Below are positions 5,082 to 27,810 of a stretch of 40,000 nucleotides of DNA, piece after piece (positions within the stretch are counted from its first letter, which is position 1; each line of letters opens with the position of its first letter). The translations under genes and the position numbers were made by a program. The notes beneath the pieces were generated by a model. The model made no database searches, was not told the origin of the DNA, and saw nothing but the letters and a program-made list of their open reading frames with translations. This DNA comes from Candidatus Aphodousia faecavium (GTDB lineage: Bacteria > Pseudomonadota > Gammaproteobacteria > Burkholderiales > Burkholderiaceae_F): contig DVLZ01000025.1 in assembly GCA_018715245.1 (NCBI GenBank), positions 31,737 to 71,736 of the forward strand. Direction: 5' to 3'.

Positions 5082-6968
5082 TTAAGCCAAAACGGCGTCA
5101 TTGAAAATACAGAAGCTTTCCGGATGACGCACGGCCACATCAAGCGACTGCAGCGCGCGGATCTCCACGCCGCCATTGTCATAGGCCGTTGCAGAGAACG
5201 GATTGGGCAAGAGCTCAACCACGCCCCATTCGCCGATCACGATGTCAGACCAGTTGCCGAACACAAGTTCAGAGCAGGTCTTTTGGCTAGGCGACTCACC
5301 AACAGTGATGTTGGAGCGAAGCTGATTGCTGCGAGCAACCGGATAGCCATTGACTTCGCCGGGTGTACCGTTGGCAAATCCCTTGTCGATCGACTTCCAG
5401 AGATACTGGCCGTTGTCATCCTTGAGTTTCTTGAGCGCTCCGATGGTGCGGGCGTTGCACATGTAAGCCATGGCATCGCCGACCACATTGGCTGCCGCAA
5501 CCTGGGTTTCCATGTCGATCAAGAGATCAAAGCTCAGATCCGTGCCGGTCGTGCCGCCTACCTTACCGACATTGGTCTGGTTGAAAATGCCCTTAGGTTG
5601 ACCGTTGCTGCCGGTGCCGATCAAGCACGCAGAATCCACGCCCAAAGCAATTGAAGTGATCAACTCATTGCGTACAAAGAGCTCCACATCCAAAGAGGCC
5701 TGCTTGAGCATATTGCGGGAAATGAAAGACTTTGCCGCAACCGTCTTCATGGACAAAGGAACCTTGTCGAAAGTCGCATTGGTGCCTGTCACCGTACCGG
5801 TTTCCGAAATCCAAGAAACCGTGGAAACGCCGCTTTGGCGCGGGATCTCAACATTGCCGACAAGGCCTGTCAAAAGCGTGGCACCCAAGCGCATCACCAT
5901 GGCTCGAGCTCGCAACGCTTCGATAAAGGAACCAGTCAAAAGCTGCGTAGCAATCAAATTTCCGCCCTGGGTTGCAGGACTTGCAAAGTAGCCAGGCGTA
6001 GGATCGTCACGGCGACCCAACGTGATGTTGGTCGGCATAAAAAAGCCTGCGGTATCGCGCTGCATACGGCGGGCCAATTCCTGGGACACTTCGCGCTCGA
6101 ATCCGGCCTGACGCCAATCGTTCGTCAAAGCCGCATTTAAAGCGCGCACCAGACTGTAACGGCTGCGTTCGGTTTCGCTCAGACCAATGTCAAAGTCATT
6201 GTGTGCACGGCTCGAATCACCGGTGGGATTGGCGCTACGGCCACGAATCGTTTCCATAACCATGGCTCGAGCCTCATCGATCGAGTGCCCTTCATTGATC
6301 AGCTTCTGGCGCTGCTCGAGAGGCACGTTGAAATCACGGCACATCGTTTCGATTGCCTGGATGCGCTCACGTTCGGCTTTGCGCTCGGCACTGCGCACTT
6401 TTTCGACATCAATATCTGCGGGCTTGGGATCTCCGGCCGCCCCATTCTTGCCGGGCTGTTGACTCGTCGTCATTGCTTTTTCTCCTTCATTAGGATCACT
6501 CAAACTCCGGTAAACACCCACCGACGTGTCGGCCGGCACAGTTACCAGGGAGACTTCATAAATTTCCCAGTCTTTTGCTAAAAACTTCGTGCCATCCCTC
6601 GACTGGTCAAAGGCATAGACGCGATAACCGCACGAGACATTGACCAGAATGCGGTCCTTCACGAGCTCAAAAGCCCGCTGCGCCTCGTCAGTTTTTGCAA
6701 ATCGAACCGTTGCATAGGTTCGGTGCTCATCCTGCTCGAGCCGCTCAACCACACCCAAAAGCTTGTCTCGATCGTGGTTAAACAAAAGCGACATCGACTG
6801 CTGCCGCTCACCGTTGCGCATAGCCCCAATGTCGTGGCTAAGCGTTTCAGTCCCATATCCGACATCCACCGGCGTATCAGAGGCCACCGGAAAACGCACT
6901 GTGCGGCTTTCCTCATTGACCTCCGACTCAGCGACCGCCAGCGATCGGAATCTAAGTTCTTTGGGCAT
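5082..6968 (-). CDS. Prohead protease (HK97 gp4/S78-type) fused to a scaffold-like linker and an HK97-fold major capsid protein
   Basis: The product is 628 aa. The N-terminal ~165 aa resemble an S78 prohead protease (..SLLFNHDRDKLLGVVE..VSCGYRV..EVSLVTVPADTSVG). The middle is a charged helical stretch (DVEKVRSAERKAERERIQAIE..). The C-terminal ~330 aa match the HK97 capsid family pattern (..LLTGSFIEALRARAMVMRLGATLLTGLVGNVEIPRQSG..). Confidence 0.85.
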   Translation of the reverse strand: MPKELRFRSLAVAESEVNEESRTVRFPVASDTPVDVGYGTETLSHDIGAMRNGERQQSMSLLFNHDRDKLLGVVERLEQDEHRTYATVRFAKTDEAQRAFELVKDRILVNVSCGYRVYAFDQSRDGTKFLAKDWEIYEVSLVTVPADTSVGVYRSLSDPNEGEKAMTTSQQPGKNGAAGDPKPADIDVEKVRSAERKAERERIQAIETMCRDFNVPLEQRQKLINEGHSIDEARAMVMETIRGRSANPTGDSSRAHNDFDIGLSETERSRYSLVRALNAALTNDWRQAGFEREVSQELARRMQRDTAGFFMPTNITLGRRDDPTPGYFASPATQGGNLIATQLLTGSFIEALRARAMVMRLGATLLTGLVGNVEIPRQSGVSTVSWISETGTVTGTNATFDKVPLSMKTVAAKSFISRNMLKQASLDVELFVRNELITSIALGVDSACLIGTGSNGQPKGIFNQTNVGKVGGTTGTDLSFDLLIDMETQVAAANVVGDAMAYMCNARTIGALKKLKDDNGQYLWKSIDKGFANGTPGEVNGYPVARSNQLRSNITVGESPSQKTCSELVFGNWSDIVIGEWGVVELLPNPFSATAYDNGGVEIRALQSLDVAVRHPESFCIFNDAVLA

Positions 6969-9038: not shown

Positions 9039-11062
9039 TCGTCACCTCTTCGGTTAAACGCATCGAAAAAGTCATCCCGAACCGGTTTTGCCTCTTCGCG
9101 TTTCTCTTCAATCTTTTCCTCTGCAGGTTTTTGCTCTGCAACATCAATCAGATCCATCTGCAGCTGCTTTTGCCTTTCCAGATCCCATTTGGCCGCATTC
9201 CAAAGGTGCAGCTTCAAGGATCTGGCAGCGTGAAGCGCATAAACCTCACAGTCAAGCGCCTCATTGCGCACGCCGGACTTTTTCTGCCAGACGCGCTTTG
9301 CGCTATGGCTGCTCGGCACCTTCACCTCGCTGGTGATCTGCTCCCAGTAGTCCGGACGCACGCCACTGTACCAGTGCATGTGCCCAGGGCCGTCTCCCTC
9401 AAGCTTGATGCGGCCGGCATTGGCATCCACTCCAAGGATCAAGTCTTTTGCTCTGCTGGTGCCGACAATGAACGGCTTTAAGCCAAAACGCAGCGATTTT
9501 TGCCGACCATTGACATCGATTGAAGGCTTTGGAGGCGTAAAGATCTCTTTGCGGTCATCATTGACCGAAGAGCCCTTAATTGCCATCAAACCCCGAGCCA
9601 TACGCCGGCGCACAAACGAGTAGACCGCATCGCTTGTTTGGCCATCCGATGAGTCGATAGAAACCGCCCGTATCTTGAGACTGGCACCATTGACTGCCTT
9701 AAAGTCACGCTTTAAGAGCGCATCCAAATCGACCCAAGCACCCCGCTCCGGCGTCATGGTCTGTCCGGGAATTTCGCCCCAGTAAACCAACCAGCTTTCC
9801 TCACCCGGACCCCAGGCTCGGATGATCACTGCCAGACGGTCGTGCTGCACGTCAACGCCAGCCGTCAGAACGCAACCCACAACCGGCACTGTAAATTCGT
9901 CGTAAGACTCGGCTCGCTTTGCAAGCACATCGGCATCCGGCAGACCGCTCTTAAAGGCATAAGGCAAACCCAGCTGCGAATTGAAAAAACTACGCATCTT
10001 GCCGTCTTTGCCCTGATCAAGCTCATGTTTGGCCGTCAAGTATTTTTCGACAAGAATTTTCAGCTTTGAACCTGGAAACGGTGAGTAAAGCTCGTTGATG
10101 TAAAAGCCCGCTGTTCCGTTGAACGGCCCCTCAGCACGCCACACACCTTTTCGCACAGCCCGGTTTTTCTTAACGTCATCCCAGACTGAGCCGCAGTGCG
10201 GACAAATGTAGGCAGCAGAATCCAGAACAGCCTTTCCAAAGATCTCATGGTTTAAGGTCTCATCCTCATTCCAGCGCACGTTATCCCAACTGAGCACATG
10301 CTCTTCGCCGCAGTCCGGGCACGGCACATAAAACTTGCGTTTGTCAGACGTTTTATAGGCAAACTCAACAGCCGAGAATCCTTCAACTGTCGGCGTTCCA
10401 CCGTAAATGATCTTTCGCCTGGCAAAGGACTTCGTTCTCTCAATCAGTAGCGCGATTGTGTCGCCTTGCTCTTTTACGTTTGTGTTGCAATCGTCCGGCT
10501 CTTCAACGCACACGACCGGGGCCGGCGTTGACTTCACTTCAGACGGTGAATTGGATCCCACAAGCTTCAAAAAACCTCCAGGGAATCCCTTGAAGTCAAA
10601 ACGGTTGTTTTTGTCACGCTTGGAAGTGATCGGAATCTTGGTCGACAGGTGAGGCGTCGCCTCAATCATCGGCACGAGCTTCTCATCATTGAAATCCTTG
10701 GCCGATTCTCGCTTGGCAAACATAACGATCATCGGGCACGGATCCAGATCAATGCGGCGTCCGATGTAGTTCAAAAGCACACCGTCAGTCCAGGCCACCT
10801 GAGCACTTTTTTGCGCCACCACGCGCTCGACTTTTGGATCATCCAGAGCTTCATGAATCCCGCTGATCCAGGGCGTGATTGATGCGTTGTAGCGACCGGG
10901 CATTGCCGTTGACTTCGAGCTCATGCCTCGATAGTTTTCAGCCCATTGAGTCGTCCCCATTTTCTCCGGGGCCCGGAGAATCTCGCTCAATCTCGCCATG
11001 ATTCTCTGGATACTCTTTGAGGTATCGAGACAGGTGATTGAGAGTATTGTTTGTGTATTCAT
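9032..11062 (-). CDS. Terminase large subunit, lambda gpA family
   Basis: The product is up to 676 aa and looks collinear with lambda gpA as I recall it. Matching elements are WAENYR.., VVAQKSAQVAWTDG, the zinc ribbon CPDCGEEHVLSWDNVRW and RNEALDCEVYALHAA. The start is uncertain, with in-frame ATGs at 11062, 10999 and 10960. The longest form overlaps terS by 125 nt. Confidence 0.9.
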   Translation of the reverse strand: MNTQTILSITCLDTSKSIQRIMARLSEILRAPEKMGTTQWAENYRGMSSKSTAMPGRYNASITPWISGIHEALDDPKVERVVAQKSAQVAWTDGVLLNYIGRRIDLDPCPMIVMFAKRESAKDFNDEKLVPMIEATPHLSTKIPITSKRDKNNRFDFKGFPGGFLKLVGSNSPSEVKSTPAPVVCVEEPDDCNTNVKEQGDTIALLIERTKSFARRKIIYGGTPTVEGFSAVEFAYKTSDKRKFYVPCPDCGEEHVLSWDNVRWNEDETLNHEIFGKAVLDSAAYICPHCGSVWDDVKKNRAVRKGVWRAEGPFNGTAGFYINELYSPFPGSKLKILVEKYLTAKHELDQGKDGKMRSFFNSQLGLPYAFKSGLPDADVLAKRAESYDEFTVPVVGCVLTAGVDVQHDRLAVIIRAWGPGEESWLVYWGEIPGQTMTPERGAWVDLDALLKRDFKAVNGASLKIRAVSIDSSDGQTSDAVYSFVRRRMARGLMAIKGSSVNDDRKEIFTPPKPSIDVNGRQKSLRFGLKPFIVGTSRAKDLILGVDANAGRIKLEGDGPGHMHWYSGVRPDYWEQITSEVKVPSSHSAKRVWQKKSGVRNEALDCEVYALHAARSLKLHLWNAAKWDLERQKQLQMDLIDVAEQKPAEEKIEEKREEAKPVRDDFFDAFNRRGDEW

Positions 11063-12268: not shown

Positions 12269-12886
12269 TTACTTTCTGTCTTTCTCGTACTGGCGCATAA
12301 GCTCATCAAAGCACTCATCGAGCAAGTCGATCGTCGATCGATTTAAAACCACTGTTTTTGTGTCCGGGAAAATTTCCATCGGATCACCAGTTGGAAGCTC
12401 GTCAATGTAGCGTCCACTGATCAATCGGATTACCGATGGGTTTTGAGCGTTAACCTCGAATGTTGTTCGTTTCTTTTGAAACGCCTCAAGCAAAATCTTT
12501 CGCTCTGCAACAGTCAAATAATTGAAATAACGAATATCACGCTCTAAAGCCTGACGCCTCTTCTGTATGGCTTTTTCCTCTGCGAGCTTTTGTGCCTGCC
12601 GAATCCTTTCCTCTTCAAGCTTTTTTGCTCGCTGGGCCTTTTCTTCTTCAAGCTTCTGGGCACGCCGGGCGAAATACTGATCCTTAAGCCAAACAATCAG
12701 CTGAACAATCAGCACGCTGATGGCAAAAGCTGCCGCCAGGTACAGCCACGTCTCATATTGTTGATGCAATGCCGCAAACCCATCAATAAAAGAGCCACCC
12801 AGGCAAATCACCAGCACAAAAACCAAGATGATCGCCGCCTTGTTGGCAGATAAAAACTCAAGCAGCACTTTGATCCAGTCGGTCAT
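12269..12886 (-). CDS. Membrane protein with coiled coil, superinfection-exclusion protein B (SieB)-like
   Basis: The product is 205 aa. It has two N-terminal TM helices (AAIILVFVLVICLGG, WLYLAAAFAISVLIVQLIVWL). These are followed by a KLEEE-repeat coiled coil and then YLTVAERKILLEAFQKKRTTFEVNAQNPSVIRLISGRYI. That matches my memory of the SieB family layout (two TM helices, then a L..EK..L..F...t......v..L...g.i block). GAGGG lies 8 nt upstream of the ATG. Confidence 0.5.
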   Translation of the reverse strand: MTDWIKVLLEFLSANKAAIILVFVLVICLGGSFIDGFAALHQQYETWLYLAAAFAISVLIVQLIVWLKDQYFARRAQKLEEEKAQRAKKLEEERIRQAQKLAEEKAIQKRRQALERDIRYFNYLTVAERKILLEAFQKKRTTFEVNAQNPSVIRLISGRYIDELPTGDPMEIFPDTKTVVLNRSTIDLLDECFDELMRQYEKDRK

Positions 12887-20306: not shown

Positions 20307-20328
20307 AAGGGCACCACGTGGTGCCCTT
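20307..20328 (+). terminator. Perfect 22-nt palindrome hairpin after the xis-like gene
   Basis: The sequence is AAGGGCACCAC|GTGGTGCCCTT followed by tgcttt. A near copy lies at 21037-21059. Confidence 0.6.
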
Positions 20329-20392: not shown

Positions 20393-21010
20393 ATGAAAGG
20401 ATTGCCCCCCCCAATAATTGTTAGCCTTCTTTCTCCTGTCTTTCTGCTCGCCGGCTGCTCTGATTCCGATAGCTCTCTACTGGAAGATTTGTCCGGAAAA
20501 ACGCTTCAAGATTTTCACAACGCTATTGAAGTTCGCAATACCACAGAAATCACGAAATCTATTGGCGCCTATTTAAGAGAAAATCAGCTACCCGATTCTG
20601 AAATTGATAAATTCCGAATCTGCCTTGGCGAATATGCCTACACAAAAAACGGATCGATCAAGATTCCTGAAGTATTAGGCTGGTGCGCCAATGAGTATAA
20701 AAACAATCCCAAAAGGTTTGCCTCCCACGTTGATATTGAACGCTTCATAAGCCTCTTTAGCGCATGGGACGGAGCATTCAAACCCACTGAAGATGCTCTT
20801 AAAAAGTCACTTAACGACCCTGACTCTTACAAACATAACGAAAGCCGGTACGTTTTGCACCTAACGCCTACAGGTGAGAATTTTGAGCCTTACGCTACCG
20901 TCGAAACTGTTTATCATGCAAAGAATCCCTTCGGCGCAATGATGAGAGGATCCGTCACCGTTAAAGTCAACCTAAAAACACTTGATATGAAAATTATCGA
21001 GGCCAAGTAG
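20393..21010 (+). CDS. Prophage-encoded lipoprotein
   Basis: The product is 205 aa, with AAGGAG 7 nt upstream of the ATG. The signal peptide has the lipobox LLAGC|SDS. The C-terminal part (..LNDPDSYKH......VYHAKNPFGAMMRGSVTV) recalls a widespread small lipoprotein domain (DPDS.kf....NaFGg). The gene is bracketed by two related hairpins. Confidence 0.8.
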   Translation: MKGLPPPIIVSLLSPVFLLAGCSDSDSSLLEDLSGKTLQDFHNAIEVRNTTEITKSIGAYLRENQLPDSEIDKFRICLGEYAYTKNGSIKIPEVLGWCANEYKNNPKRFASHVDIERFISLFSAWDGAFKPTEDALKKSLNDPDSYKHNESRYVLHLTPTGENFEPYATVETVYHAKNPFGAMMRGSVTVKVNLKTLDMKIIEAK

Positions 21011-21036
21011 CCCCATCAAGTTGCGTACTAATAATT

Positions 21037-21059
21037 AAGGGCACCAGCGAGGTGCCCTT
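21037..21059. terminator. Hairpin between the convergent lipoprotein and RelE-like genes (bidirectional terminator candidate)
   Basis: The sequence is AAGGGCACC-agcga-GGTGCCCTT, followed by acttttctt on the plus strand and flanked by aatta on the other side. Confidence 0.6.
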
Positions 21060-21066
21060 ACTTTTC

Positions 21067-21357
21067 TTACCGTTTAGCTCTCTTTTTCTGACTATATCTG
21101 TCCATTTCCTTATGCGTAGCAATATCAAGCAAACGGTAAGTATCTCCGATGATTTCCAACACTATCTGCCAGCTTTTATTTGGCATAACATCCATTTTCC
21201 ATAATGGAGGTCGAAAACCTGTCAGCCGATGCAATCGTATGCTTCCAGTTTTTCCTTCGAGCAAACTATCAATCTTATCTGCTGCCTTTTCTTGGATATC
21301 AATCGGAACCTTCGAAAGCGCCTTTTCAAATGACTCTGTTAGCTCCAACTTAGCCAC
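21067..21357 (-). CDS. RelE/ParE-superfamily toxin-like protein
   Basis: The product is 96 aa from GTG 21357, with GGAGAA 6-7 nt upstream. The N-terminal helices are FEKALSKVPIDIQEKAADKIDSLLEG. They are followed by LHRLTGFRPPLWKMDVMPNKSWQIVLEIIGDTYRLLDIATHKEMDRY. This fits the RelE/ParE pattern (H.L.G....W.......R....i.......l..i..H...Y). Confidence 0.6.
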   Translation of the reverse strand: MAKLELTESFEKALSKVPIDIQEKAADKIDSLLEGKTGSIRLHRLTGFRPPLWKMDVMPNKSWQIVLEIIGDTYRLLDIATHKEMDRYSQKKRAKR

Positions 21358-21940
21358 GATGCTTCTCCAGCAGTCTATTGAAAATCTGATTACTGCTGCG
21401 AGTCAGTGGTTTTTCCAACAAAGCATTGCTGATTCTAAAATGCTCTGCTATTTGCTCTATCAGTGCACTTAGTTCATATACCCGGAGATTGACAGCGGAC
21501 AGTTTTTCGATACATTCACCAACACAAGCTCGATTAATTCCTGATTGATCAAGCCTCTGTATCGTATTCTCTAAAGATCTTTCTGTTAAGCGCAGAACAA
21601 AAAGAGCCATGTCGGACACAACATCTATGCTGTCCCCTACATGTTCTCGTTTGAATGTTGGATCGTTGATTTGGGAAATCAATACCTGGTCTGCGTACTT
21701 TAGATTTTCGCAAAGTCCGGCAACTTCCTGCTCAATGCAAGAAAGTTGAGTGTTGATGGAACCAATCACAACATCAAATTGGTGGTCAACTTGAACCTTG
21801 ATGCTCTCTTGTTTAAGGGCATCAACAACAGCCGTACTCACTCGTTCAGTTAGCTTGGCTGTTTTGTCAAGCACCTTTCTACCGACATTGAGATCTAGCT
21901 CAAATCCGGCATTGAAAGAATTGATGGCAAGTGCAGTCAT
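21350..21940 (-). CDS. Orphan helical protein, upstream partner of the RelE-like gene (start uncertain: ATG 21940 or TTG 22015)
   Basis: The product is 196-221 aa. Its stop overlaps the downstream GTG (GTGGCTAA). The composition is leucine/glutamate/isoleucine-rich and helical. I recognise no DNA-binding motif. It ends ..NRLLEKHRG. Confidence 0.6.
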   Translation of the reverse strand: MTALAINSFNAGFELDLNVGRKVLDKTAKLTERVSTAVVDALKQESIKVQVDHQFDVVIGSINTQLSCIEQEVAGLCENLKYADQVLISQINDPTFKREHVGDSIDVVSDMALFVLRLTERSLENTIQRLDQSGINRACVGECIEKLSAVNLRVYELSALIEQIAEHFRISNALLEKPLTRSSNQIFNRLLEKHRG

Positions 21941-22038
21941 TGGATAACCGTTAAAATCGGCACAAAGCGTACCGGCAACAGAACAAGGCCGAAGGGAAAA
22001 ACCCTCAGCCGCCAAAAGTACTCGTGAGATACGATTTA

Positions 22039-22067
22039 ATTTTAAAAAAACAAGGCCCTTTTATCAA
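22039..22067 (-). promoter_or_regulatory. Near-consensus sigma-70 promoter for the two-gene cargo operon (TTGATA-17 nt-TAAAAT)
   Basis: On the minus strand, TTGATA is at 22067-22062 and TAAAAT at 22044-22039. The spacer aaagggccttgtttttt is 17 nt. Confidence 0.6.
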
Positions 22068-22143
22068 CTTTCAAGAATCTTAAAGCTGCTTTTAAAGTAA
22101 CAACTCAAAAAGTAGCCCATCTAACCCCTGATTTTATTATGTG

Positions 22144-22165
22144 TCGAATCCTCTCACCCCGACCA
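22144..22165 (+). other. tRNA-Pro 3' fragment = candidate attR core of the prophage
   Basis: The sequence tcgaatcctctcaccccgacca comprises T-loop, 3' T-stem, 7-nt acceptor strand, discriminator A and CCA. It is very close to the E. coli tRNA-Pro end GGTTCGAATCCTCTATCACCGACCA as I recall it. The 55 nt upstream have no D or anticodon arm, so this is a fragment and not a gene. A terminator follows it. Confidence 0.7.
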
Positions 22166-22179
22166 TCTAAATTCTTAAA

Positions 22180-22202
22180 GCGACTGCCCGAGTCGCTTTT
22201 TT
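22180..22202 (+). terminator. Intrinsic terminator of the (displaced) tRNA gene; also faces the ATPase 3' end
   Basis: The sequence is GCGACT-gcccg-AGTCGC followed by TTTTTT, located 14 nt after the CCA. Confidence 0.75.
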
Positions 22203-24474: not shown

Positions 24475-26217
24475 TTAAGTATAACTAACCGTTTCAGTTT
24501 CAGAATCTTTCTTTGTTTTGCCGAGCCAAAGAGAAATTTGTTCAAATGCTTTCCTGACCGCTATCGGCAACATATTGTCAACAGACTGGTTATAGGGGTT
24601 TTGAGCAATAATTTCTCCCAAGAATCCAGAATATTCTGCTTTCTTTTTCTCAAGTTTGCGTTTTAGATCCCTCGGGGCCAACGCCATCATGCGCTCGTAC
24701 TGAAGGTGCTTGGATTTGGGCGAAGTGTTTGTTGAACCGTTACAGGCCCAAAGTGCATCGTAAATTTCGCGATTAAGTCCTGTCTTGTAAACCAACTCGC
24801 CTTCGATTGCCAAACCGGGAGAGAGGAAAAACACTCCGCTTTGATTGTCCTGTGCTCGGCTGTGAACCCTTCTTTCCGTGTCACTTAATTGTTTCAGGAC
24901 CACATGTCGGGCATCTCCGTCATTATCACTGATCACACAAAACGGCTTTTTAAGACTGAGCGCCAACATTAGAAACGGTGCATAACTTTTACCGTCCACC
25001 CCGATGATGCTGATCCCATAGGTGCTGGGATCTTCTCCAAAATAAGCCTGAAACATCCCTCGTATGAGTTGCTCTTCGGTAACCCCTTCCACAAAAATCA
25101 GACCCGTAGCAAAGAGTACTTCGGCTCTGAAACGCAAAATAAGCCGTTTAATGACCCGAGTTTCCATAGGATCAATATTTTGAGGTAACCACCGTACCCG
25201 AATGTCTTCACCAACCCGCAACATGCTGCGAAACTCATGAGGCTCAGATACTGAGGCTACGTACGGTGAATGGGTGGAAACTACACATTGGTGAGATAGC
25301 GATTTGAGACGAGTCATCAGTGCGCGTTGAGCGTTAGGGTGCAAATGAATTTCCGGTTCCTCTGCAGCAATCAGCATAAAAAGCGGCTTCTGAGATAACT
25401 GTGCATGCTTTGCCAACAAATCCACTAAAACAACAATAGACAGAATGGCGACGCTTTTTTGACTGCCCTTACCCTGAAGGACCGAAAACGGAATGATTTT
25501 CTCGGAGTCACTTTTTACTAAAGAGAAGAACGCTTCAATATTATCAGCCGTCAATGCGACTCCCTGAGGCAAGCCGGTTCCAGGTCCTTCTAGTGTTTGA
25601 CTCAAAGAGTCCAACATCGCCTTTAAGTCCTCAATCGGCTTAACTCCATAATCAGGGTGTTTTTTCAGTACAGTACTTAACTCATTGACCGTCAGACTGA
25701 CAAACGATTTTTCATTTTTAAGATCTTCTCTGAGGTTTTCCTCAGCATCAATACTCACAAACTGAATAGCATGGGGTAGCACATCGATAGCCTCTCCGAG
25801 CCGGGCGGCATCCCAATGCAGTATCTCATAGCGTGCTTTTGTGATTACCCCATTGTCATGGCGAGTAAACACTGTCCTGAAAGCCATGTATTCGCGTCGA
25901 TAATGGTCCCTGCGAATTAAACCCGCAAACTCTTTTTGCCACCGATCAGGAAACATCGACAAACGATTCGATTGCGGGTTAATCGGCACAAAACGCACAT
26001 CGACCCATAATTCTTTGGCAAAGGTGCCGACAGCATCCATGTGAAAATCTTCTTTCTGAACGGAAGTTTCATCACTCAAAGCCAATTCAAGCGCTTTTAA
26101 AACCGTGCTTTTGCCACAATTATTCGCACCAAGCAAAACCGTTGTGCGACCCAAGGGCATCTGCAAAGTGCGGATGCTTCTGAAGCCGTTAATGCGTATG
26201 CGATCGATAACAATCAT
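24475..26217 (-). CDS. OLD-family nuclease (ABC-type ATPase + C-terminal Toprim), single-gene / GajA-like architecture
   Basis: The product is 580 aa. The ATPase motifs are Walker A GANNCGKST, signature-like GKGSQKS, Walker B LFMLIAAEEPEIHLHP and H-loop STHSP. The Toprim motifs are FVEGVTEE and CVISDNDGD. Confidence 0.85.
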   Translation of the reverse strand: MIVIDRIRINGFRSIRTLQMPLGRTTVLLGANNCGKSTVLKALELALSDETSVQKEDFHMDAVGTFAKELWVDVRFVPINPQSNRLSMFPDRWQKEFAGLIRRDHYRREYMAFRTVFTRHDNGVITKARYEILHWDAARLGEAIDVLPHAIQFVSIDAEENLREDLKNEKSFVSLTVNELSTVLKKHPDYGVKPIEDLKAMLDSLSQTLEGPGTGLPQGVALTADNIEAFFSLVKSDSEKIIPFSVLQGKGSQKSVAILSIVVLVDLLAKHAQLSQKPLFMLIAAEEPEIHLHPNAQRALMTRLKSLSHQCVVSTHSPYVASVSEPHEFRSMLRVGEDIRVRWLPQNIDPMETRVIKRLILRFRAEVLFATGLIFVEGVTEEQLIRGMFQAYFGEDPSTYGISIIGVDGKSYAPFLMLALSLKKPFCVISDNDGDARHVVLKQLSDTERRVHSRAQDNQSGVFFLSPGLAIEGELVYKTGLNREIYDALWACNGSTNTSPKSKHLQYERMMALAPRDLKRKLEKKKAEYSGFLGEIIAQNPYNQSVDNMLPIAVRKAFEQISLWLGKTKKDSETETVSYT

Positions 26218-26325: not shown

Positions 26326-27450
26326 ATGCGCGAATACACAGAAATTGAAACCATCACTCAGTTGTTGGGACTTGTCACAGAACCCGGTCACATTGACCAT
26401 CATGTTTTTCAAAATATTGACTTCACAGATCTGGCTGATTTAGCTGCTCAGTCAACCTACTCAGACTGTCTTTTCCTCGGATGCGTCTTGCCTGAGAGTT
26501 TTTCCAAAACGCTTGATAAATCCAATCTGATCTTTCCTAAATTGGATGCGCCTTTTGACATTTACAGAAGCTATCTGTATTCCTCCAATTCACTTTATTC
26601 GGGCTTCGATATCCGAGATGAGAGCAGCATTGAAAATACCTATGACCGTCGCGTCTACCGGCACTATCTGCAAACCGGGGTGTTTTCCAAAAACATTAAA
26701 GAAACGCTCTCGCGGTACCTTCACGACCACTCAATGAGCAATGCAATCAAAGATTTTCTGTCCAATTACCATGAGCGGCAGATTGTGGGAATCATGGGCG
26801 GTCACGACTTACTGCGTACAGATCCCTTTTACCGCCAAATTGTGCTCTTAAGTAAACGTCTGACCGAGATGGGATTCATCATGGTGAGCGGAGGCGGGGC
26901 CGGGGCAATGGAGGCTACACACTTGGGAGCGTGGTTAGCCAAACGCTCTTTGAAAGAAGTTGATGAAGCACTGGAAATTCTGTCTGAAGCGCCAAGCTGG
27001 CAGGATGCGGGATGGTTAAAGACGGCTTTCATTGTGAAACTGAAGATGCGTCAGACGCACTTCATCAGCCTGGGCGTTCCCACGTGGCTCTATGGACATG
27101 AGCCGGCAACACCTTTTGCCACACATATTGCTAAGTTTTTTGATAACAGTATCCGAGAAGACACCATCCTCAATATCACCCGAGGCGGTTTAATTTACAC
27201 ACCGGGTAGTGCCGGCACCGTTCAGGAGATTTTCCAGGCAGCTGTTCCGAACCACTATAAAACTTACGGTTACTCAAGTTTAATGGTGTTCCTTGGAGTT
27301 GATTTCTGGCGCAAGGAAATGCCGGTTTACCCACTCATTGAACATTTGGTCGAAACCGGAAAGTACAACGGTTTACGAATATCCATCACCGACAATATTG
27401 AAGAAGTGGTGCAAACCGTTAAAACTTTCAGACCACAAAAAGGTCAATAA
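26326..27450 (+). CDS. LOG-family (TIGR00730-like Rossmann) protein with a ~150-aa N-terminal extension
   Basis: The product is 374 aa, with AAAGGAG upstream. The LOG motifs are VSGGGAGAMEA and TPGSAGTVQE (canonical PGGxGTxxE). I do not recognise the N-terminal region (..HHVFQNIDFTDLADLAAQSTYSDCLFLGCVL..). Confidence 0.7.
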   Translation: MREYTEIETITQLLGLVTEPGHIDHHVFQNIDFTDLADLAAQSTYSDCLFLGCVLPESFSKTLDKSNLIFPKLDAPFDIYRSYLYSSNSLYSGFDIRDESSIENTYDRRVYRHYLQTGVFSKNIKETLSRYLHDHSMSNAIKDFLSNYHERQIVGIMGGHDLLRTDPFYRQIVLLSKRLTEMGFIMVSGGGAGAMEATHLGAWLAKRSLKEVDEALEILSEAPSWQDAGWLKTAFIVKLKMRQTHFISLGVPTWLYGHEPATPFATHIAKFFDNSIREDTILNITRGGLIYTPGSAGTVQEIFQAAVPNHYKTYGYSSLMVFLGVDFWRKEMPVYPLIEHLVETGKYNGLRISITDNIEEVVQTVKTFRPQKGQ

Positions 27451-27453
27451 TGC

Positions 27454-27810
27454 CTAGCGGTTGAGTGTTTTTTCCAACGAAAGCGCAATCGCTTTTAAGT
27501 GTTTTTCTACCCGATCAAGTTCCTCGCGTCTTTTGGCTACTTGTTGCAAATAGCCTTTGACCTGGGCGAGCAACCATTCGTTGCCGAGAGAGGGATTATC
27601 TCGGTATTCTAAAAACCGCTCGATACACTCCAATTTCATGCCGTTGGTGCGACAATCCATAATAAAGCGCAAACGCTCTACATCCTTTCCCGAATAACTT
27701 CTTTGCCCGCCGAGGTTCCGAGCGATATCGGGCAACACCCCTTTTTGCTCATAAAAACGAATAGTTCCGATCGGACAACCGGTCAATTTTGATAATTCAC
27801 CTATTCTCAT
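27454..27810 (-). CDS. MerR-family transcriptional regulator
   Basis: The N-terminal MerR HTH is MRIGELSKLTGCPIGTIRFYEQKGVL. A C-terminal coiled coil follows. The gene is divergent from the MBL gene. Confidence 0.85.
   Translation of the reverse strand: MRIGELSKLTGCPIGTIRFYEQKGVLPDIARNLGGQRSYSGKDVERLRFIMDCRTNGMKLECIERFLEYRDNPSLGNEWLLAQVKGYLQQVAKRREELDRVEKHLKAIALSLEKTLNR

Follow-up and report, generated by a model that had tools for sequence, protein, structure and literature searches.

A candidate type II-like toxin–antitoxin module with a large helical partner at the attachment-site end of a Sutterella prophage

DinJ-YafQ, HP0895-HP0894 and RelBE are type II toxin–antitoxin (TA) systems, and their toxins are ribosome-dependent mRNA endonucleases. 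Here, we compare these systems with a pair of adjacent minus-strand genes in a 40,000-nucleotide stretch of contig DVLZ01000025.1 (Candidatus Aphodousia faecavium); "the window" refers to this whole stretch. The pair lies at one end of a lambda-like temperate prophage, which spans window positions 1 to about 22165. In our judgement it is probably a bicistronic, translationally coupled type II-like TA module, carried as accessory cargo at the attachment (att)-proximal end of a temperate phage of uncultured Sutterella. The product of the small gene, 96 amino acids (aa) long, would be the toxin. The 196-aa product of the large gene, with four predicted long helices and a conserved C-terminal tail, would represent a new antitoxin family.

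The locus resembles DinJ-YafQ, HP0895-HP0894 and RelBE in the size, charge and beta-alpha-alpha-beta-beta-beta-alpha fold of the toxin, in having the antitoxin gene first, in translational coupling and in the acidic partner. A conserved His near the C-terminus of the small protein also aligns, albeit weakly, with H87 of YafQ. In contrast to all three systems, the toxin sequence scores below every Pfam threshold, and the antitoxin is 196 aa long rather than about 80–90 aa. Moreover, the partner lacks any domain of the ribbon-helix-helix (RHH), helix-turn-helix (HTH), AbrB or Phd kind, and relatives could be detected only within its own very small family.

Three further systems are instructive. 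ParESO-CopASO stabilises the excised circular form of prophage CP4So in Shewanella oneidensis, and CopASO is reported to autoregulate the operon as well as neutralising the toxin (PMC8706911). Like our gene pair, it combines a RelE/ParE-superfamily toxin with an antitoxin as prophage cargo, and it is a plausible model for a stabilising role; unlike CopASO, the large protein has no detectable DNA-binding domain, and the small protein is structurally nearer to the RNase branch than to ParE. Second, RelE/ParE-fold toxins recombine with many unrelated antitoxin domains (PMC10440598). The NetFlax/PanA networks described in that work find a parallel here in one toxin clade whose helical partners are of two types, with profiles that are not significantly similar, and in a SocA_Panacea pair that occupies the adjacent cargo slot of a related phage. 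In contrast to the NetFlax/PanA antitoxins, the large protein is not a Panacea domain: none of 12 members of its family matches PF13274 (Panacea, SocA/DUF4065). Third, CapRelSJ46 is a fused TA with a phage-sensing antitoxin domain (PMC9712102). It illustrates, as a concept, how a large antitoxin part could also sense phages. Its toxin is a toxSAS rather than RelE-like, its two parts are fused rather than separate, and there is no relation in sequence or fold. What appears new at this locus is a large helical partner without a match in known families; the combinatorial pairing of RelE/ParE-fold toxins with unrelated antitoxins is well documented.

The gene pair and its two products

The large gene (21350-21940, minus strand) lies upstream, starts with ATG and encodes an acidic protein (isoelectric point, pI, 5.4). 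The small gene (21067-21357, minus strand) starts with GTG and encodes a basic protein (pI 9.6) whose predicted fold is of the RelE/YafQ/HP0894 type. The two genes overlap by 8 nt (GTGGCTAA, 21357-21350), and a Shine-Dalgarno sequence for the small gene, GGAGAA (21363-21368, minus strand), lies inside the large gene, 5 nt ahead of the GTG. For comparison we aligned the region upstream of the pair with its counterpart in L001-L003, three loci from metagenomes in which this phage or a related one is present. L001, the 62%-identical orthologous locus, has the GGAGAA sequence too. An original prediction, made from the letters of this DNA alone, had described the overlapping genes, the internal Shine-Dalgarno sequence and the antitoxin-then-toxin order; the coordinates bear this out, and gene order and coupling agree with the order proposed. 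The same prediction gave the upstream protein 196 to 221 aa. The shorter length stands, with its ATG at 21940, where all relatives begin (MT(A/T)L...). The 221-aa reading from a TTG was rejected: the additional 25 residues are found only in near-identical copies.

A sigma-70-like promoter, TTGATA-17-TAAAAT (22039-22067, minus strand), precedes the pair and lies inside the att arm. It matches at 10 of 12 positions. Promoter-like sites are not enriched in the region (4 found, against 3.8 expected from shuffled sequences). Even so, L001 preserves the predicted site at the matching point of the alignment, as TTGACA-17-TAACAT, in DNA that is only ~65% identical between the two loci. Between promoter and ATG is a terminator-like hairpin (21987-22010, minus strand), which may be an attenuator or an insulator. 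L001 has a terminator-like hairpin at the equivalent place in its leader (9924-9945), of non-homologous sequence; the folding z-score of the window leader is only -1.6. An Rfam search of the leader and att region returned only noise, and a repeat search around the promoter for an operator gave nothing convincing.

Downstream of the pair, a hairpin of 10 pairs, 6 of them G-C (21036-21060), forms a bidirectional terminator. The original prediction assigned it to the pair; it is present, but the pair shares it with a lipoprotein gene that runs towards it from the other side, and the plus strand has a better T-tract than the strand of the gene pair. L002 has one homologous hairpin after the pair. 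The pair is poorer in G+C than the prophage body (41.8% versus 52.8%), and earlier hand counts of 21/60 at 21421-21480 and 34/60 at 5101-5160 proved exact.

The AlphaFold 2 (AF2) model of the small protein has a predicted local distance difference test (pLDDT) score of 82. It comprises a strand (residues 3-6), two helices (8-16 and 19-34), four strands and a C-terminal helix (82-95), and thus has the compact beta-alpha-alpha-beta-beta-beta-(alpha), microbial RNase-like fold, about 85-100 aa in size, of the RelE/ParE superfamily. In a Foldseek search of the PDB, the top 45 matches were all RelE/YafQ/YoeB/HigB/ParE toxins. The best was H. pylori HP0894 (4lsy, E 3.6e-5); other top matches were V. 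cholerae YafQ (9lew), archaeal and E. coli RelE (3bpq, 4fxe), YoeB and HigB. Model and search agree with the RelE/ParE layout originally predicted for the 96-aa product. Template modelling (TM) scores were 0.63-0.72 for RNase toxins versus 0.47-0.60 for ParE structures (6xrw, 5cw7). By sequence profile, phrog_1213 ("RelE-like toxin") matches the small protein with E 7e-5. A profile search of PDB sequences gave nothing significant for either protein of the pair, and the top matches (dynein, cyclodipeptide synthase) arose by chance. On the strength of the model we place the small protein in the RelE/ParE superfamily, as a divergent member whose predicted fold is closest to the RNase branch (HP0894/YafQ/RelE/YoeB/HigB).

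Residues R41, H43, K54, D56, N60, S62, W63, Q64, H82, K83 and D86 of the small protein are invariant across homologues that are 39-73% identical. The catalytic residues are K52, K54, R61, R81 and Y87 in RelE, and H50, H63, D67, H87 and F91 in YafQ. Alignments with hhalign were weak but in register for both E. coli RelE, with K54 on K52 (E 0.0039), and YafQ, with H82 on H87 (E 0.11). These alignments point to candidate catalytic residues in the small protein. The window's protein also has a basic extension of its C-terminal helix, which is missing from distant family members.

The model of the large protein consists of four long helices (4-43, 48-91, 101-132 and 138-175) and a low-confidence tail; because AF2 confidence is low there, the tail is probably disordered. 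The tail contains the most conserved block of the family, ...I.nAL.EkP...S..P.Ln.LL(G), also written ...ALLEKP..S..P.LN.LL... Model and profile searches agree with the original description of the partner as all-helical, unusually large and without a known antitoxin domain. The large protein has no match in Pfam, NCBIfam, PADLOC or PDB sequences, and no meaningful match in PHROGs; the outcome that would have counted against the original prediction, a confident match to a known antitoxin or system component, did not occur. Fold searches with the model, against the PDB and BFVD, found only generic long-helix bundles (syntaxin, STAT coiled coil, MukF) at TM scores of at most 0.52. An HTH assignment through CggR_N was rejected, being below threshold and present in only 2 of 12 family members.

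The original prediction also read the C-terminal RLLEKH as having the R-x4-H spacing of the HEPN motif. We reject this reading. HEPN RNases conserve R-x4-6-H within a four-helix HEPN domain. Here the His is a Tyr (RLLEKY) in the 62%-identical orthologue P0003, the Arg position is Q, A, K or D in distant members, and the protein often ends at LLG, before the His position. Pfam searches gave no HEPN match.

Synteny, decay and a proposed mechanism

The large-protein family is tiny. An exhaustive HMMER scan of 1.84 billion cluster representatives found 11 proteins, one of them spurious, and a word-indexed search of 5.8 billion proteins gave 13 matches. Among 185,579 species genomes, one has a close relative. 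The large gene of the window is 100% identical to a sequence on contig UQYP01000002.1, from a metagenome-assembled genome of an uncultured Sutterella sp. (UMGS767). There was no real match by tblastn in 50,697 phage records and 72,556 plasmids, and no match by blastn of the locus against phages.

Within this family, the small gene accompanies the large gene. A homologue lies directly downstream in 7 lineages of the large protein, which are 18-62% identical to that of the window. The genes overlap by 8 nt in the window and L001, and by the 8 nt ATGCATAA in L005 and L007; a gap of 2-6 nt separates them in L010, L012 and L014. The original prediction had named co-occurrence elsewhere and placement at prophage ends as its checks, and the pair is indeed syntenic in distant relatives, at the ends of mobile elements.

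When the search was based on the small protein, all eight further loci had an upstream gene for a helical partner (164-200 aa) or its remnant. In five of the eight the partner is of the same family (L016, L018, L021 and L022, and as a remnant in L020). In the other three (L017 4492-5279, L019 4477-5267 and L023 4477-5279) it is of another type, a helical protein of 164-170 aa with no Pfam family, whose gene overlaps that of the small protein by 4 nt. Common ancestry of the two partner families is unproven, since their profile–profile comparison is not significant (E 0.13) and aligns the C-terminus alone. In L017, a DUF29 gene lies just upstream of the pair.

In three lineages the large gene is intact or partly retained whereas its small neighbour has decayed. 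The small gene carries in-frame stops in L008 and L009 (RLHRTAGIRPPI*K...) and is cut after 27 codons in L015. In L020 (189-944, on a short metagenomic contig), the N-terminal part of the large partner is fused in frame to the C-terminal two-thirds of the small gene, a fusion that probably arose by deletion between short similar stretches (…AVN…). Both genes are under purifying selection, as judged from the ratio of nonsynonymous to synonymous substitution rates (dN/dS), which is well below 1: the large gene has values of 0.13-0.18 and the small gene of 0-0.11. For the same pair of loci, the large proteins are 69% identical and the small proteins 89%. Hence, the large protein diverges faster. 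The pI of the large proteins is 4.5-5.9, and 6.7 in a solo copy with a decayed toxin gene; that of the small proteins is 9.3-10.

These features form a classic TA signature with the small protein as the toxin, because no toxin gene is found without a partner gene, a partner gene can outlast decay of the toxin gene, the two proteins are oppositely charged and their genes translationally coupled, and the partner evolves faster and appears exchangeable. As in type II systems, adjacent, co-oriented and tightly spaced or overlapping genes are kept across divergent homologues. Antitoxin lability aside, the acidic partner, the basic small protein and the presence of orphan-antitoxin but no orphan-toxin loci are also as in type II systems.

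Several observations weigh against a type II-like assignment. The small protein is under the gathering threshold of every Pfam RelE/ParE/YafQ family (the best, ParE_like, scores 14.1 against 24.4 bits) and has no match in NCBIfam. Other members of its family have only sub-threshold Pfam matches; the weak ones include ParE_like and ParE_toxin. The model of the large protein, built from 3 sequences, is of medium confidence only (pLDDT 62). Because the family is so small, the co-occurrence statistics rest on about a dozen lineages. The autoregulatory DNA-binding domain of type II antitoxins is missing: Pfam, NCBIfam and PHROG searches of the large protein found no RHH, HTH, AbrB or Phd/YefM domain. 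This leaves the usual autoregulation of type II operons unexplained. Since there is no DNA-binding domain, classical autoregulation is unlikely, and this is the main departure from textbook type II systems.

How might such a module work? We propose that the operon has a weak constitutive promoter of its own within the att arm, that transcription runs through the leader hairpin, and that the 8-nt overlap and internal Shine-Dalgarno sequence would tie synthesis of the toxin to that of the antitoxin. The small protein would most likely arrest growth through cleavage of mRNA on the ribosome. The conserved tail of the acidic partner may fold onto the toxin and so neutralise the RelE/YafQ-like RNase, and the four-helix body could provide oligomerisation, stability control or sensing. 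As for the biological role, the module may serve either stabilisation of the element or abortive infection.

The prophage end, the cargo slot and neighbouring genes

The end of the prophage is marked by TCGAATCCTCTCACCCCGACCA (22144-22165, plus strand), which resembles the 3ʹ end of a tRNA-Pro gene and forms the att core at the prophage–host junction. It occurs once in the window, with 0 expected by chance, and shares 20 of 22 positions, the CCA among them, with the 3ʹ terminus of E. coli tRNA-Pro (proM). ARAGORN finds no whole tRNA. From TGGTCGG(G)GTGAGAGGATTCGA inwards the window is similar to L001-L003; the change is abrupt, and the flanks beyond differ. Copies of the junction in L001 (about 9685-9710) and L002 (about 838-860) have 1-2-nt deletions. 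On the host side, each locus has its own terminator hairpin, followed by coaE in L001-L003 or by a P-type ATPase gene in the window. The window's hairpin (22177-22199) lies just outside the junction, downstream of both the tRNA remnant and the convergent P-type ATPase gene; the hairpins at the equivalent place in L001-L003 have different sequences.

The start of homology, the match to a tRNA-Pro 3ʹ end, the single occurrence and the lack of a whole tRNA together place the att site at this junction. Going by its sequence, 22144-22165 is a tRNA 3ʹ fragment that arose when the phage integrated into a tRNA-Pro gene, and it marks the att site distal to that gene; the integrase and the complete tRNA-Pro should be found at the other end of the prophage, outside the window. 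The ATG of the large gene is only 204 bp inside the junction, which makes the gene pair the last cargo before host DNA. The original prediction placed the genes last before attR, and the comparison of four loci with different host flanks supports this. Just upstream of the -35 hexamer the window carries GTTACTTT (22094-22101), and L001 (about 9751-9775) has the same element as a direct repeat, GTTACTTTtataGTTACTTT. These elements are candidate arm-type integrase sites in the att arm that would overlap the promoter region of the pair.

All contexts of the pair are mobile or defence-associated. In the window and L001-L003 it is at the att end of the same phage type. In L005, L019 and L023 it lies directly beside a tyrosine integrase gene, and downstream of that gene in L019 and L023; L005 also has neighbouring BstA and AAA_21 genes. 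In L012 the two genes are the last of a DUF927/SNF2 element, just before host efp. In L014 their neighbours are defence-type genes, for ATPases of the OLD and AAA_21 families, together with host genes, and no integrase is called at a distance of up to 6 kb. L016 represents IMG/VR phage contigs with antirepressor and polyvalent-protein genes. Proteins of 874-885 aa without a Pfam domain adjoin the pair in three phage-like contigs (L016 3013-5670, L021 1665-4322 and L022 1622-4246); in L016, a gene for a PBECR3/ddrB-ParB polyvalent protein comes next.

Related phages differ in what fills the slot between the gene pair and an AlpA-like gene. The slot is empty in L002 and L003, and in L001 (11015-11912) it holds a gene with a SocA_Panacea domain (PF13274) and a gene for a 148-aa protein. 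Neither product matches a PADLOC model; together they are probably a second TA-like pair. In the window, the slot is occupied by the lipoprotein gene (20393-21010; lipobox LAGC; phrog_3403), which is flanked by near-identical terminator hairpins at 20307-20328 and 21036-21060 (AAGGGCACC...GGTGCCCTT). The lipoprotein gene is lacking from the related phage in L002, where only one hairpin (1945-1969) is present. Hence, the lipoprotein gene looks like a cargo cassette that was inserted at, or duplicated, the terminator.

The prophage itself has a full lytic gene set and a CI-like S24 repressor. The genes seen include those for capsid/protease, portal, large terminase, SieB, Toprim/DUF5906 primase and Rha, and the AlpA-like gene. 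The SieB-like superinfection-exclusion gene (12269-12886, minus strand; Pfam E 6.8e-11) shows that the prophage carries other exclusion cargo.

To the right of the prophage are the P-type ATPase gene and a GajA-like OLD-family gene, with hydrogenase genes beyond. The GajA-like gene (24475-26217, minus strand; PADLOC GajA model, E 7e-114) encodes an OLD-family ATPase-TOPRIM protein and is 2.4 kb from the gene pair. No GajB-like helicase gene adjoins it; downstream are an open reading frame of 123 aa and then the P-type ATPase gene. Further to the right, a 118-aa protein (27454-27810, minus strand) matches the PADLOC model "mad1" with its N-terminus (E 6.5e-11), and a 374-aa protein encoded nearby (26326-27450, plus strand) has a weak SLOG-cluster4 match. 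The host flank at 24-29 kb is low in G+C (43-46% per 1-kb window). On account of this composition, together with the "mad1" and SLOG-cluster4 matches, the flank may be a small defence island.

Alternative roles and significance

What would such a module do for the phage? One possibility, which we hold tentatively, is that it acts in abortive infection, as a specialised form of the proposed TA module in which the large helical domain is a sensor that, on binding a phage protein during infection, would set the RelE-like toxin free. This would fit an antitoxin of 2-3 times the usual size that lacks a DNA-binding domain and evolves faster than its toxin, and a single toxin clade that is served by two unrelated or very divergent helical partners. 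Defence genes are nearby: SieB in the prophage, the GajA-like gene 2.4 kb away, BstA and AAA_21 in L005, OLD and AAA_21 in L014, and the SocA_Panacea pair in the slot of L001. There is a precedent in CapRel, whose antitoxin domain is bound by a capsid protein (PMC9712102). However, nearness to defence genes is common for any cargo of mobile elements, the large protein's fold offers no clue to what it might bind, be it a ligand or a partner, and neither protein matches any system in PADLOC (PADLOC-DB v2) at E values up to 1.

Somewhat more doubtfully, we suggest that the acidic four-helix protein may define a new class of sensor-antitoxin. In this scenario the tail would hold the RelE-like RNase inactive, and a phage protein that binds or competes at the bundle would free it. 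Together with its sister pairs, in which another helical protein is the partner, the module could then belong to an unrecognised family of abortive-infection systems beside integration sites.

Alternatively, the module could be an addiction system that kills or arrests cells that lose the excised prophage or island, with no direct anti-phage role. We regard this as possible to the same tentative degree as abortive infection, and the evidence fits stabilisation as well as it fits defence. The pair is at the att or integrase end of integrative elements in the window and in L001-L003, L005, L012, L019 and L023, the predicted promoter lies inside the att arm, and there is precedent for such a role of a RelE/ParE-superfamily pair in a prophage (PMC8706911). 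On the other hand, a prophage with a full lytic gene set and a CI repressor may rarely be lost without killing the cell anyway, and the pair in L014, among ATPase and host genes with no integrase nearby, is not readily explained by stabilisation.

A different kind of alternative concerns the toxin itself, which could be a ParE-type gyrase poison instead of a ribosome-dependent RNase. ParE_like and ParE_toxin are among the weak Pfam matches, ParE structures are among the Foldseek matches, and the window's protein has a basic C-terminal helix extension. We nonetheless think this unlikely: the best structural matches are all RNases, with TM scores above those of ParE, conserved His and Lys residues align, if weakly, with catalytic positions of YafQ and RelE, and the extension is missing in distant family members. 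Least likely of all is that the pair is not a TA module but a non-toxic complex that serves the phage in some other way, for example by regulating integration or excision at the adjacent att arm, or a pair with reversed roles (large protein harmful, small protein protective), since, for all that the large protein belongs to no known antitoxin family, the pair adjoins att and an AlpA-like gene, and a RelE fold alone is no proof of toxicity, the pair is not bound to one phage type or one integrase, its absence from nearly all related phages and from the 50,697 phage records argues against a core function, and the large gene outlasts the decayed small gene, the opposite of what reversed roles predict.

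We therefore return to the type II-like TA module as our preferred explanation. Its practical value is modest because many new TA families are described each year. The locus also shows cleanly how a tRNA-Pro att site can be a hot-spot for cargo, with three different slot contents in related phages. With its oversized partner, lack of an autoregulatory domain and apparent partner swapping, the pair is a tractable candidate for the study of trigger sensing by antitoxins. If it works as proposed, the large protein would represent a new antitoxin fold family, large, helical and without a DNA-binding domain, and the small protein would add a divergent clade of RelE-like toxins to the combinatorial TA repertoire, from the barely studied phages of gut Sutterellaceae.

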